Assembly (NCBI GenBank): GCA_046758505.1
Contig: JBHIAH010000024.1
Span: 1 to 30,226, forward strand
DNA: 30,226 nt
Origin: Candidatus Methylomirabilales bacterium
GTDB taxonomy: Bacteria; Methylomirabilota; Methylomirabilia; Methylomirabilales; CSP1-5
Direction of reading: 5' to 3'
Shown: positions 27,001-30,000 of the stretch, piece by piece
Position numbering within the stretch: position 1 is the first letter of the stretch
Layout: each line of letters begins with the position of its first letter
Program-made: the position numbers

Positions 27001-30000
27001 CACCAGGGGATACTGCGGATGTATCTCGGTATGGGCGGGCGCGGGACGCCAATGATTCCGAGTCATATGTTTCAGGTCCGCGTGCAGTGCGTGGCCTGCC
27101 ACATCGTGCCCAAGGAAAAAAAGCGGGTCGCCGGCATTGTGGGGCAGACGTTCAGGCCGAGCGAGCAGGCATGCTTGGGTTGCCACGGCGAGAAGTACCG
27201 TGGGATGTTGAAGCGGTGGTCGGACACGCTCCGGAAGATGCAGGAGGCCGTGGCCCCGAAGCTCGCGGCTATGGACAAAGCGCTGGCCAGCGCCAACCCC
27301 AAAAATCCCAAGCATGCGAAGGCGAGGAAACTGGTGGACGACGCCGCATTCAATACTCACTTCGTTGCGCTCGCCAAAGGCGTCCACAACGTCTTTTACG
27401 CGGCCGACCTGCTCAAGCTCGCGAACGGCTGGCTCGACGAAGCGTTTACACTCCTTGGGCAGGCACCGGTCGAAACCGATGACGTCCTCGTCCGCGGTAG
27501 ATACTGCCGCGAGCTGTGTCACCAGCAGGCAGGGGTTCCCCTGCCCGTGACGGTCACATTCAAGGGGCAGGAGGTGCCGCACGGCCGGCACATTACCGAG
27601 TTCGGCGCCGTGTGTACGGACTGTCACTCGGCCGAGGTGCACAAGGCGGTCACTGCGACCCCTGCGACGTGCGTATCGTGTCATCATAGCCCGGAGAACG
27701 AACGGTGCACGTCGTGTCACCGCACGCAGGCTGCCTTCTACCGCGGGGAGATAAAGACGGACCTGGCCAAGATCGAGCCGAACGTCATGGCCGCCGCGGT
27801 GGATTGCACCGGGTGCCACGATTGGAACAAGAAGCACTCGCGCAAGGCGGTCGGCCAGCAGTGTCTCGCATGCCACGACGAGGCGTACGTCGCGTTCCTG
27901 GATGAGTGGACGACCGGGCTCGACGAGCAAATGGCGAAAGCGACCAAAGACCTCAAGCGTGCGGAGGTCGCACTCAAGAAGGCGCGCCGCGCCAAGCGTA
28001 AGATCAGCGCGGCGGAGAGCTTGGTGGAGGACGCGCACAGAGCACTGGCCGTGGTCAAAGGGGGGCGGGGCGTTCACAATCCCGCTGCCGCGGATGCACT
28101 CCTGGAAGTTGTCCGTCAAAAGGCAAAACAGGCGCTTGCCCAAATCGGGCGGCGGTGATAAAGGATTAAAGCATGGGACGATCCTCTCGACAGAAGCTGC
28201 CCGAGACCCCGCGCCGCAACTGGCCGGTGGCCGGACTCGCGGCCGCAGGTCTTATCGTGGCGGGCTACCTCGCATTGACCAAACTCGGGGGTGAGAGTCC
28301 CCTGTTCTGCACCGCGGGTAGCGGCTGCGATATCGTCCAGGCAAGCCGGTATGCGGTCTTTTTCGGCCTGCCCACGGCGCTGTGGGGGACTGGCCTCTAC
28401 GCGGCCATCGGCGCTCTTGCACTCATGGGGCTGGACGCGCGGCGATGGCTCGCCGCCTTCTTGCTGGCCGTTGTCGGCGTGTCCTTTTTTGCGTATCTCA
28501 CCTATCTCGAGTTGTTTGAGATCGGCGCGGTCTGTTCATACTGTGTCCTCTCGTCGCTGATCATGGTGGCCCTCTTCGGCCTTTTACTCGCTGGCCGGTC
28601 GTCGGTCGTCGGTCGTCGGTCCGCGGTGCGCCCGGGCCGGATCGCCACCCTCGGCACCATCACGGCTGTGGTTACCATCCTCGTCGGCGCCGGTTACTTC
28701 GCGGGGGATTCCTCGCACGCCGCTGGCTATCAGGAAGCACTTGCCCGTCACCTGAGCGACAGCGGCGCCATCATGTACGGCGCCTACTGGTGACCCGCCT
28801 GCGGCGAGCAAAAGGCCCGGTTCGGGCCTGCGGCGAAACTGCTCCCGTACGTCGAGTGCGATCCGAAGATGCCGGGGTCGGATCCGGCGCTCTGCCGCCG
28901 CCTCGCGATCCGGGTCTATCCCACCTGGTTCATCAGGGGCGTGCGTCACGAGGGGGTCCTCACGCTTGACCGGCTGGCCACACTCTCGGACTTCCGGCAG
29001 TAGTCCCCCTGGTGTGTCACCTGCCTTGGCGGGGAGGCCCACGAGATCATACCGACGTTCACCGGGATTTCTCCATCTGCGCATGATCCAGTGTGGATTT
29101 TTTTCTGACCTCTATCATTGATCGGCGACCGTCAGGGCAAGGGCTGAGAGAAAAGAGGTGGTTCGTCCTGCCGTTGCAAGCCGGATCTGAGGAGTGTGGT
29201 CCCCGCTTTTCACTCATCTGGGTCAGGTCTTCCCCATCCAGTAACTTCCGCTCTCCAAAAGCATTGCAGGTCTCCTATGTCCTGGCGATGCCCCTTCTCT
29301 GGGACATACCTGCCTCGGTTTTGCCTGGTACCCTCGTGTTGGTTGGCAATGGCGATTAGTTGTTCTGGCTTAAAAATAAATAAGTTAGTTGAAGGTGAGT
29401 GAATTACCACACCCGTGGCACCCTGCTTGCTCTGCAACCGCGGGGATCCCGTGTGACGCGTCCATTAGCCCCCCTTACCTTGGTTGAAGACGAGTAGATA
29501 TCGAGGGGATCGTGGGGTTGTTCACGAGCCTGAAGGCAAAGTTCATCACCGCGACGATTCTAATCCTCGTTGCCGCGATCGGGGTCTCGTCGTGGCGGAC
29601 CCTGAAGATGCAGCGGGACCAGCTCATTGCGGCCACCGAGGAGAAGGTGACTATGCTCACGGACACGATCGAAAGGAGCATAGCGACCGCCATGGTGGAG
29701 GGGCGCAGCGAGGATGTGCAGGCCATCGTCCAGAAGCTGGGGGATCATGGAGATATACAGCGGATACGAATCTTCGACGACGAGGGGACGATACGGATAT
29801 CCTCTGACCTGAAAGAACGAGGAAGGAAAGTATCCCGCCCCGGCCCTCCGCAATACAAAGGCCATATCGAGACAAACGTCCCCTTTATCTTCAAAGAGCA
29901 CGCAAGCGGACACGCAATCCATTCCCTCGTCAAGCCGATCCTGAATCGTCCGGAGTGTTACCGGTGTCACGATCCCCGTCACCGGGTAAACGGCATCCTC

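Follow-up and report, generated by a model that had tools for sequence, protein, structure and literature searches.

A predicted selenocysteine-containing VKOR-thioredoxin fusion protein in Methylomirabilales

The gene at 28173-29003 of a 30,226-nt stretch of Candidatus Methylomirabilales DNA (the window) very probably encodes a single inner-membrane protein of 276 residues, a predicted selenoprotein in which UGA codon 207 would be decoded as selenocysteine (Sec) by SelB acting with a hairpin 26 nt downstream. It looks like a real selenoprotein type that has so far gone uncatalogued. Bacterial protein disulfides originate from VKOR and DsbB enzymes, and human VKOR is the target of warfarin; to our knowledge, all described VKOR/DsbB enzymes use cysteine relays. 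We assessed the gene and its predicted product by a combination of homology searches, structural modelling, comparison of related loci and analysis of gene context.

The candidate gene and its predicted product

Under translation table 11 the gene is divided into two open reading frames that share one frame, 28173-28793 (206 aa, ending in MYGAYW before the TGA) and 28869-29003 (44 aa). Reading through the TGA gives 276 aa, with W-U-P-A-C as residues 206-210. Both the ORF calls and the read-through translation confirm the initial annotation, which had described one 276-aa gene running through TGA at codon 207. The features of the locus are listed in Table 1; the hairpin that follows the gene is a probable end of the transcription unit, judging from its sequence.

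Table 1. Features of the VKOR-Trx locus (window coordinates)
Feature	Coordinates	Strand	Basis or remarks
Octahaem c-type cytochrome gene, 517 aa, 8 CxxCH	26605..28158	+	Directly 5' of the VKOR-Trx gene
Ribosome-binding site AAGGA	28161..28165	+	7 nt 5' of ATG at 28173; direct sequence reading
Whole candidate selenoprotein gene	28173..29003	+	276 codons plus TAG (29001-29003); single in-frame TGA is codon 207
VKOR four-helix core, residues 17-137	28221..28583	+	PF07884
Loop Cys46, Cys52 and Ser58, within the VKOR core	28308-28310 (Cys46); 28326-28328 (Cys52)	+	Alignment to Synechococcus structure
VKOR active site Cys121-Ser-Tyr-Cys124	28533-28544	+	Alignment to Synechococcus structure
Fifth TM helix, residues 154-178	28632..28706	+	AF2 helix 154-178; aligned to TM5 of the solved structure
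Trx-like domain, residues 184-276	28722..29000	+	3KP8 Trx domain match, E 2.7e-21; Foldseek TMt 0.90
Trx-like domain motifs			U207-P-A-C210; cis-Pro loop V-Y-P250-T-W; Cys229/Cys241 pair
UGA codon 207, candidate Sec codon	28791..28793	+	TGA in 18 of 19 distinct clade CDS; Cys in homologues
SECIS-like hairpin A-GGCCCG / GUU / CGGGCC-U	28813..28829	+	Apical loop begins 26 nt 3' of UGA; MFE -11.9 kcal/mol
Terminator-like hairpin followed by T run	29075..29098	+	About 70 nt past the stop codon; consensus scan only

The VKOR model PF07884 matches residues 17-137 (E 3.4e-25; 89.2 bits against a curated cut-off of 27.5), and residues 19-273 align with residues 23-276 of the Synechococcus VKOR-Trx fusion (E 6e-40; PDB 3KP9/4NV2/4NV5/4NV6). 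In the PDB alignment, C46, C52, S58, C121, C124, U207 and C210 correspond to Synechococcus C50, C56, S62, C130, C133, C209 and C212, respectively, so that U207 lies on the first Cys of the Trx CxxC. The features that define the VKOR family (a CxxC at the start of TM4, the loop Cys pair and the conserved loop Ser) are present, as are those of the bacterial VKOR-Trx fusions, namely TM5 followed by a C-terminal Trx-like domain whose redox motif would face the same side as the loop Cys. Eight Cys columns (46, 52, 121, 124, 207, 210, 229 and 241) are invariant in 50 sequences, and so is P250. The AF2 model has a pLDDT of 90.7, shows a Trx fold and sets residue 207 at the N-terminal end of helix 208-215; its best Foldseek matches are Synechococcus VKOR (TM 0.63-0.70). 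The Arg-rich loops 86-92 and 141-157 agree with the positive-inside rule, and from homology and this charge distribution we infer that TM5 puts the C-terminal Trx-like domain on the periplasmic side. By sequence, the predicted 276-residue product is an orthologue-grade relative of the Synechococcus VKOR-Trx fusion, and homology and the model show its predicted architecture: a cytoplasmic N-terminus, a four-helix VKOR core, a fifth helix and a periplasmic Trx-like domain. The fusion of VKOR to a Trx-like domain bearing W-U-P-A-C, as first proposed, is thereby upheld, with TM5 added between the two parts. Quinone reductase activity is predicted from the solved homologue.

In the excerpts of PMC4555152 that deal with the solved Synechococcus VKOR, the enzyme reduces quinone with electrons from its Trx domain, and in the crystal Cys209 forms an interdomain bond with Cys50. 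With this homologue and general Sec chemistry as a guide, the relay in the Methylomirabilales protein would likely run from Sec207/Cys210 to the loop pair Cys46/Cys52, on to Cys121/Cys124 and finally to quinone, with a periplasmic selenolate/selenenylsulfide. The oxidised enzyme would carry a selenenylsulfide between Sec207 and Cys210. A substrate thiolate would attack the selenium and a second substrate Cys would resolve the intermediate, yielding the substrate disulfide and a selenolate. The selenolate would then attack the Cys46-Cys52 loop disulfide, comparable to the Cys209-Cys50 bond in Synechococcus, and electrons would pass to Cys121/Cys124 and to the membrane quinone. Sec surpasses Cys as nucleophile, as electrophile and as leaving group, so that exchange would be faster at all three steps, and Sec probably lowers the redox potential as well. 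Reduction of a selenenylsulfide is as a rule more difficult than that of a disulfide, which might make the Sec form less effective as a net oxidant.

The VKOR-Trx gene stands at the end of a respiratory cluster (Rieske protein, cytochrome b and multihaem cytochromes), 14 nt beyond the TGA stop codon of the octahaem cytochrome gene (28156-28158). An octahaem cytochrome gene lies directly 5' of all 7 order Sec loci with upstream DNA and of 13 of the 14 metagenome Sec loci, the fourteenth having no upstream DNA, whereas it precedes none of the Cys-type loci tested (0/14 in the metagenome comparison, 0/5 in the order comparison). L048 is a Sec locus of 81% identity whose 1.5-kb contig was assigned to a Kiloniellaceae MAG; its upstream DNA, only 734 nt long, showed no cytochrome at E <= 1e-3, and the locus was given no weight. 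The gene order suggests that the clients of the predicted Sec-VKOR-Trx may be periplasmic respiratory proteins.

We also searched the genome for other disulfide enzymes. The DsbB model PF02600 had 0 matches in this 96.8%-complete genome, and the NCBIfam DsbB model NF002552, which has a cut-off of 138 bits, gave the VKOR-Trx protein 12.9 bits (E 0.067); with no DsbB found in the genome, a VKOR is the expected disulfide generator. The same genome carries a second VKOR-domain gene and DsbA-like proteins (4 Thioredoxin_4 matches). Some genomes also keep a Cys-type CPHC paralogue elsewhere, and one (G030) has both forms.

It is possible, if doubtful, that de novo disulfide generation has here its first natural selenoenzyme, with a periplasmic selenolate/selenenylsulfide centre built into a membrane quinone reductase. 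Such an enzyme would serve only the maturation of the multihaem-cytochrome and Rieske/cytochrome b respiratory module always encoded beside it, and would be equipped with a selenium switch. With selenium, the fused full-length enzyme would be made; without it, translation would stop at UGA207, leaving a five-helix VKOR that could partner free DsbA-like proteins, as actinobacterial VKORs do.

We consider it unlikely that the protein, although a real Sec-VKOR-Trx, serves as something other than a general DsbA/DsbB-type oxidase, for instance, owing to a low-potential Se-S centre, as a dedicated isomerase or reductase or a redox sensor, or else as a specialised point of electron entry to the quinone pool for the neighbouring cytochrome complex. 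Such a role would fit the P-A dipeptide of the active site (U-P-A-C in 18/18 Sec-clade CDS), which is not the strongly oxidising P-H of DsbA type found in 24 Cys forms (C-P-H-C); it would also fit the strict synteny with one cytochrome gene, the CPHC paralogues kept by some genomes, and the second VKOR-domain gene and DsbA-like genes of this genome. Against it, the oxidase relay residues are all kept, the solved homologue passes electrons from its Trx domain to quinone in the portion of PMC4555152 cited above, and DsbB was not found in the genome.

Predicted translation across the UGA codon and its cysteine counterparts

If UGA 207 is translated, then the sequence beyond it should be under the same selection as the sequence before it. 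The dN/dS after the TGA matches that before it, at 0.09-0.42 in 36 of 36 pairs compared with 0.13-0.35, and on these values a pseudogene or split gene was rejected. A conserved P-A-C-G-E-Q-K begins at the codon directly after the TGA, 25 codons ahead of any ATG, and a separate downstream product would therefore be without the CxxC. These data make it highly improbable that the UGA is a true stop, which would leave a 206-residue five-helix VKOR followed by 83 codons of relic or of a separate small protein. Gene callers do split the gene at this codon: of the 120 best protein clusters, 55 are calls that end at W206. The genome also has separate DsbA-like proteins, and part of PMC4555120 describes actinobacterial VKORs with a fifth helix and no Trx domain. 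A true stop is further opposed by the Cys that homologues carry at the TGA column and by the SECIS-like hairpin and Sec machinery described below.

The Cys counterparts of codon 207 were assessed in four sets of sequences. In 66 genomes of the order Methylomirabilales, exactly one TGA interrupts the frame at 8 further loci, which belong to 7 genomes (5 of the genus, 2 of another family); tblastn identity is 58-81% for the 7 loci fetched, and 60-81% in the search that covered all 8. The motif reads YGAYW*PAC in 8/8 full order loci (the window's own and 7 others) and WCPHC in 3/3 fetched paralogue loci of 36-39% identity. Both the locus count and the motif counts of the initial annotation were reproduced in this way, with one correction: the genome flagged as unpublished is G031 (locus L025) and not G033, and it contributes one Cys-type paralogue on which the conclusions do not depend. 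In GTDB, 30 of 72 loci span the site, 5 with W*PAC and 25 in the Cys form. Metagenome loci have Cys at the site in 40 of 54 cases. Of the 120 best protein clusters, 65 carry Cys at the site; the first motif recognised 63 of them, and a widened motif added P0031 and P0064. The nearest of these clusters read W-C-P-A-C. A further 54 protein clusters are labelled Sec solely from calls ending ...GAYW, the stop codon being seen at the DNA level in 18 CDS. The three wider sets agree with the clean Sec/Cys pair claimed earlier for the first active-site position, and the in-frame UGA aligns with Cys in homologues and is flanked by conserved sequence on both sides.

The TGA itself is persistent. The one distinct clade CDS without it, L126, has TGT; it lies inside the Sec clade, with 81% nucleotide identity to L020/L021, and over the first 206 residues its protein differs at just two positions (204/206 identical) from a database call whose last residue is W206. 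In contigs from 4 runs of one study the TGA is unchanged, with no alternative letter at codon 207. The 18 independent CDS rule out sequencing error as its source. A single origin of the Sec form has an SH-like support of 93 (FastTree only).

The SECIS-like hairpin and the selenocysteine machinery

Published criteria for bacterial SECIS elements (PMC13188914, section 5) are a loop of 3-9 nt on a stem of 4-16 bp, a G in the first two loop positions, a position 16-37 nt past the UGA and an MFE of -7.5 or lower. The window hairpin has a GUU loop, a stem of 6-7 bp (with the A-U closing pair), a spacing of 26 nt and an MFE of -11.9 kcal/mol, values that lie within 4 of the 4 bSECIS constraints. A hairpin at this place had been noted initially, and a SECIS-like hairpin is indeed present; its pairing, however, is GGCCCG/GUU/CGGGCC rather than GGCCCGG-UUC-GGGCC, and 6 of the 8 order loci, not all 8, keep it exactly. 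Of the remaining two, one has a G.U pair and the other an A.C at the top pair.

Across 19 distinct CDS the stem keeps one and the same codon for each of K, A, F and G; elsewhere in these CDS only 9 of 89 invariant-residue columns are also codon-invariant, and 16 of 101 in the 9-locus set. As the hairpin is invariant it offers no compensatory changes, and because it overlaps the conserved peptide K-A-R-F-G-P its conservation partly reflects constraint on the protein. Taken whole, the 76-nt region is no more stable than shuffled sequences (z -0.16), which in GC-rich DNA makes whole-region stability uninformative, and we therefore used an aligned 23-nt segment. The folding energies of this segment are -11.3 to -13.0 in 14/14 Sec loci; for 40 Cys loci the median is -2.6. 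A comparable hairpin is absent from 39 of the 40 Cys loci, and the sole Cys locus with one is L126. An Rfam scan of 28000-29300 at E <= 10 returned no SECIS family and 5 weak, unrelated matches.

The same genome encodes a tRNA-Sec (80 bits, anticodon tca), SelB (333 bits), SelA (607 bits) and SelD (407 bits). The SelD gene itself contains one in-frame TGA, accompanied by a similar element with a 9-bp stem, a GUG loop and a spacing of 33 nt. SelA is present in 8/8 genomes that have a TGA VKOR-Trx locus.

TGA-to-Trp and TGA-to-Gly codes are known in some bacteria, and the inserted residue cannot be named from sequence data alone, yet a reading of the UGA by a standard tRNA (near-cognate Trp or Cys) or by a reassigned code is barely credible for a gene that keeps exactly one TGA, in the place of a catalytic Cys, and behind it a SelB-type hairpin whose synonymous sites are frozen. 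The genome has a full Sec pathway, and Trp or Gly at this position would destroy a CxxC that is invariant in 50 homologues. An alternative genetic code was rejected because TGA ends the neighbouring cytochrome gene.

Significance and comparison with known systems

No Sec VKOR was found in the catalogues, family models or full-text literature searched (main texts). VKOR and vitamin K have 0 mentions in the main texts of the 2026 (PMC13188914) and 2022 selenoproteome catalogues and of the deep-Sep paper. As far as these main texts and the family models go, the initial statement that a Sec form is unlisted is supported. The selenium of the predicted protein would sit at the very residue through which the bonds to the substrate and between the domains are formed; together with a crystal structure of a Cys homologue, the occurrence of Sec and Cys versions in one clade offers a ready system for finding out what selenium buys in extracytoplasmic thiol-disulfide exchange. 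The finding also points to a systematic annotation error, with 54 further 90%-identity clusters in public protein sets truncated at codon 207. The selenoproteome of Methylomirabilota would gain a membrane enzyme; the 63 predicted selenoprotein genes of one MAG of this phylum have been proposed as a new bacterial upper bound (Deng et al. 2026, Cell Rep 45:116760, as summarised in the 2026 review).

Among catalogued selenoproteins, the Trx-fold UxxC proteins include DsbA-like form 1, a thiol-disulfide isomerase-like protein, SaoT, the HUIPC-motif protein and others (PMC13188914). They likewise have Sec first in UxxC and Cys homologues, and several are predicted to be extracytoplasmic, but none is fused to a membrane quinone reductase (PMC13188914). 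The Trx part of the window protein matched 0 families of Pfam and NCBIfam release 20 at E <= 10.

The LTO1/AtVKOR protein is an all-Cys enzyme of oxygenic phototrophs, and we know of no report of a Sec form. This plant and cyanobacterial protein has the same fusion of VKOR to a Trx-like domain and is reported to introduce disulfides into proteins on the lumenal side of an electron-transport membrane (PMC4400859, abstract). The E. coli DsbB-DsbA system follows the same logic, a Trx-fold oxidant being recycled by a four-helix membrane quinone reductase with two Cys pairs (as outlined in an excerpt of PMC4555120), although it belongs to a different family, whereas here the partner is fused and predicted to bear Sec. 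The closest counterpart is the Synechococcus VKOR-Trx fusion, which shares the full-length alignment, the fold with five helices and a periplasmic Trx-like domain, and the relay positions at about 34% identity. It has Cys209 with a P-H dipeptide in place of the predicted Sec207 with P-A, and, unlike the Synechococcus fusion, the Methylomirabilales gene goes with a cluster of respiratory cytochromes and not with a photosynthetic organism.

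The reading frame and its product

The initial annotation had joined two open reading frames into one gene of 276 codons read through a TGA, and our analysis bears this out. The frames lie in the same phase and are interrupted by a single TGA, and reading it through yields a 276-residue protein that ends at a TAG (29001-29003) and carries W-U-P-A-C at residues 206-210, U being selenocysteine (Sec). The stop codon of the upstream gene is 14 nt 5' of the ATG. Beyond the TGA, the conserved sequence P-A-C-G-E-Q-K begins at the very next codon, and dN/dS (Nei-Gojobori, 36 pairs among nine loci) is 0.09-0.42 vs. 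0.13-0.35 on the 5' side. The first ATG after the TGA is 25 codons downstream, so a separately initiated product would be without the active site. At 28597-28620, about three in-frame copies of the 7-nt unit GGTCGTC encode ...SSVVGRRS... in the predicted cytoplasmic loop ahead of TM5; this repeat is missing from the other loci, and the contigs of run X4 show loose ends there.

Features of the VKOR-thioredoxin gene, its product and related loci
Feature	Position	Strand	Description
AAGGA box	7 nt 5' of ATG 28173	+	read from sequence
ORF 1	28173-28793	+	table 11; 206 aa, C-terminal ...AIMYGAYW, then TGA
In-frame TGA	28791-28793	+	only one; codon 207
SECIS-like hairpin	28813-28829	+	A-GGCCCG / GUU / CGGGCC-U, -11.9 kcal/mol
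ORF 2	28869-29003	+	table 11; 44 aa, same frame as ORF 1
Terminator-like hairpin	29075-29098	+	3' of the VKOR-thioredoxin gene
C46 / C52			Synechococcus C50 / C56, counted along phmmer alignment
S58			Synechococcus S62, counted along phmmer alignment
C121 / C124			Synechococcus C130 / C133, counted along phmmer alignment
U207 / C210			Synechococcus C209 / C212, counted along phmmer alignment
SelD gene (locus L016)	G000:C6 ~7700-8900		TGA at C6:7825; itself a selenoprotein
VKOR-thioredoxin locus of L126	1498-2340, metagenome contig		TGT instead of TGA

The proposed fusion of a VKOR domain with a thioredoxin (Trx)-like domain was likewise upheld. Pfam places VKOR at residues 17-137 (E 3.4e-25, 89 bits vs. 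a cut-off of 27.5), and in a phmmer search of PDB sequences residues 19-273 align to 23-276 of the Synechococcus VKORC1/thioredoxin-domain protein (4NV2/4NV5, 4NV6, 3KP9; E 6e-40), the Trx part alone aligning to 3KP8 (E 2.7e-21). AlphaFold2, run on 50 sequences (pLDDT 90.7, pTM 0.82), predicts helices at 17-38, 68-85, 89-117, 122-140 and 154-178 and then a Trx fold, where residue 207 comes after strand 200-203 and lies at the N-terminal end of helix 208-215. Foldseek ranked 4NV5, 4NV6, 4NV2 and 3KP9 first (TM 0.63-0.70), then 3KP8 (TMt 0.90), then human and fish VKOR. The alignment of the 50 sequences shows no variation at any of the eight Cys positions (46, 52, 121, 124, 207, 210, 229 and 241) or in the cis-Pro loop, P250-T-W. 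The N-terminus and loops 86-92 and 141-157 are rich in Arg and Lys, which fits the cytoplasm; homology and the positive-inside rule would put both the Trx domain and the Cys pair of the loop on the periplasmic side.

Recurrence of the TGA and the SECIS-like hairpin

The genome (G000, 96.8% complete) encodes tRNA-Sec (80 bits vs. a gathering score of 47; called by ARAGORN as SeC, anticodon tca), SelB (333 bits), SelA (607 bits) and SelD (407 bits), the last in a gene with one in-frame TGA of its own (...SHGAG*ACKISP...). The SelD SECIS-like element resembles the VKOR-Trx hairpin: its stem has 9 bp, its triloop is GUG and its spacing from the UGA is 33 nt. Of the 66 genomes examined in the order Methylomirabilales, 58 have SelA, including 25/25 high-quality genomes and 8/8 genomes with a TGA locus.

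A six-frame search of these 66 genomes returned eight more loci with exactly one TGA, in seven genomes, at 60-81% identity (58-81% by tblastn for the seven fetched), and MYGAYW*PACG is found in 8/8 fetched Sec loci of the order; the recurrence reported initially is thus confirmed. The search also returned four Cys-type paralogues (37-41% identity), of which one belongs to the unpublished genome G031 and another is a second copy in G030 beside its Sec form. This second copy, with CPHC, sits on a different contig from the Sec-VKOR gene. The pairing of Sec with Cys at the first active-site position, also noted initially, held: the site was covered in 30 of 72 loci on GTDB contigs (TGA 5, Cys 25) and in 54 of 80 on metagenome contigs (TGA 14, Cys 40). 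The 19 distinct coding sequences of the clade (one duplicate removed) have TGA in 18 cases and TGT in one, L126. The P-A dipeptide occurs in all 18 Sec sequences and also in the nearest Cys forms. In contigs of four runs from one study, three of them possibly the origin of the window, the TGA is invariant; co-occurring relatives there differ at 28805, 28829, 28836 and 28838. An 81%-identical Sec locus (L048) lies on a 1542-nt contig binned to a Kiloniellaceae (alphaproteobacterial) MAG, most likely a binning error rather than a transfer.

Among the best 120 protein clusters (90% identity) from 456 hits, 55 stop exactly at ...GAYW (188-254 aa), namely the window's own protein and 54 others, under names such as "vitamin K epoxide reductase family protein" and "uncharacterized membrane protein"; the remaining 65 are full-length Cys forms (CPAC 27, CPHC 24). 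In a quick FastTree analysis of the region N-terminal to the site, with the Sec label taken from truncation at GAYW, the 55 form one side of one branch (SH-like 93, one label change). Two or more Methylomirabilales families keep the Sec form, which also occurs on many metagenome contigs and is systematically mis-annotated as a shortened VKOR.

The hairpin that the initial annotation had placed after the UGA is present, its loop beginning 26 nt past the UGA. The bSECIS model, as given in the main text of PMC13188914, has a loop of 3-9 nt, a stem of 4-16 bp, a spacing of 16-37 nt and MFE <= -7.5, with a G within the first two loop positions (mostly G, then G or U); the hairpin agrees with 4/4 of the constraints in that text. 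It coincides with a conserved peptide, the stem encoding K-A-R-F-G-P. Its codons AAG, GCC, TTC and GGG are invariant across the 19 distinct coding sequences, where a single codon is kept in only 9/89 other invariant degenerate-residue columns (13/93 overall; 16/101 columns are codon-invariant in the nine-locus set); four such frozen columns would arise by chance at ~1e-4, assuming independent columns. Variants (one G.U in L018, one A.C in L021) keep the pairing or weaken the top pair alone. The aligned 23-nt segment folded at -11.3 to -13.0 in 14/14 metagenome Sec loci vs. a median of -2.6 in 40 metagenome Cys loci, of which L126 alone was comparable (-11.8). Variation among the loci is too slight to reveal compensatory changes, and none was seen in the hairpin; stability of the 76-nt region was not above shuffles (z -0.16), and Rfam gave no match for the hairpin.

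L126 falls inside the Sec clade, with 81% nucleotide identity to loci L020/L021; its protein agrees at 204 of the first 206 residues with cluster P0018, a database call ending exactly at W206. It retains the hairpin with CAG (A.C top pair) and looks like a recent Sec-to-Cys change still carrying a relic hairpin. Another metagenome locus, L137 (54% identity, Cys-type CPHC), has a weaker 5-bp hairpin at the SECIS position (GGCUC...GAGCC, -9.6 kcal/mol), which may be ancestral, a relic or coincidental.

Genomic context and proposed mechanism

The gene is the last of a same-strand cluster (17448-28158, +) encoding, in order, a 4Fe-4S dicluster protein, NrfD, c-type and multihaem cytochromes, a Rieske protein (CTHLHC...CACH), cytochrome b, a NapC/NirT cytochrome and an octahaem cytochrome (8 CxxCH). 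As ORF 23633-25015 and the cytochrome b gene overlap, the real start of this ORF probably lies further downstream. The octahaem gene is the immediate upstream neighbour in 7/7 Sec loci of the order having upstream DNA and in 13/14 metagenome Sec loci, the 14th starting within the gene; it was upstream of none of the Cys-type loci in two test sets (0/14 and 0/5). Ahead of L126 lie another multihaem cytochrome, distinct from this one, and a membrane protein. Gene order suggests that the enzyme may serve this respiratory module.

No Pfam match to DsbB was found in this 96.8%-complete genome, which has four Thioredoxin_4 (DsbA-like) matches. The best of these (C16:40459-40911, -) is ~2.3 kb from the tRNA-Sec gene (C16:43195-43285, -). 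A second VKOR-domain match (73.5 bits) falls in a 962-codon open frame at C5:14507-17395, which carries a CTLC motif but lacks a Trx domain; by eye, the N-terminal part of this frame resembles an NAD-dependent epimerase/dehydratase. In G030, a partial Trx-domain repeat (L202 753-1091, -, on G030:C2; ...RPACGEQKAQLGPAADLLPYVECDQRVPGSNPALC...) lies ~1.5 kb downstream of the Sec-VKOR gene, with a 516-aa multihaem cytochrome gene in between; it is without W-U and the remaining Trx fold and looks like a duplication relic.

In the Synechococcus enzyme, electrons pass from the Trx domain to the loop Cys, the CXXC and quinone (PMC4555152). Since Sec207 corresponds to C209, which is bonded to C50 in the crystal described there, it would make the interdomain bond. 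Being N-terminal in the xxC motif, Sec207 would also be expected to bond substrates. From a resting state with a Se207-S210 bond, a substrate thiolate would attack Se, and resolution of the adduct by a second substrate Cys would yield a selenolate and leave the substrate with a disulfide; the selenolate would then attack the C46-C52 disulfide, and electrons would pass to C121/C124 and quinone. By general selenium chemistry, Sec would be expected to bring a kinetic gain and a lower Se-S potential.

Comparison with catalogued selenoproteins

The product is very probably a genuine selenoprotein, a VKOR-Trx enzyme in a new Sec form, the identity of residue 207 being predicted from sequence; the initial observation is confirmed and its interpretation supported. 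The statement that a Sec form has not been listed also agrees with our searches. VKOR and vitamin K have 0 occurrences in the main texts of PMC13188914 (2026 catalogue review), PMC9312934 (2022 review) and PMC12013277 (deep-Sep paper), and selenocysteine has 0 in the VKOR phylogeny paper (PMC4555120). Among the papers listed by full-text searches, all of them on eukaryotes or unrelated, none mentioned a Sec-containing VKOR. For the whole protein NCBIfam release 20 gave only sub-threshold VKOR models, and neither it nor Pfam matched the Trx part alone. For Methylomirabilota, PMC13188914 refers to a MAG with 63 predicted selenoprotein genes (Deng et al. 2026). Several Trx-fold UxxC selenoproteins, DsbA-like ones included, are already catalogued in that text, so the novelty is that of a new family and architecture: it is not a new principle but the presence of Sec in a predicted membrane disulfide-generating enzyme.
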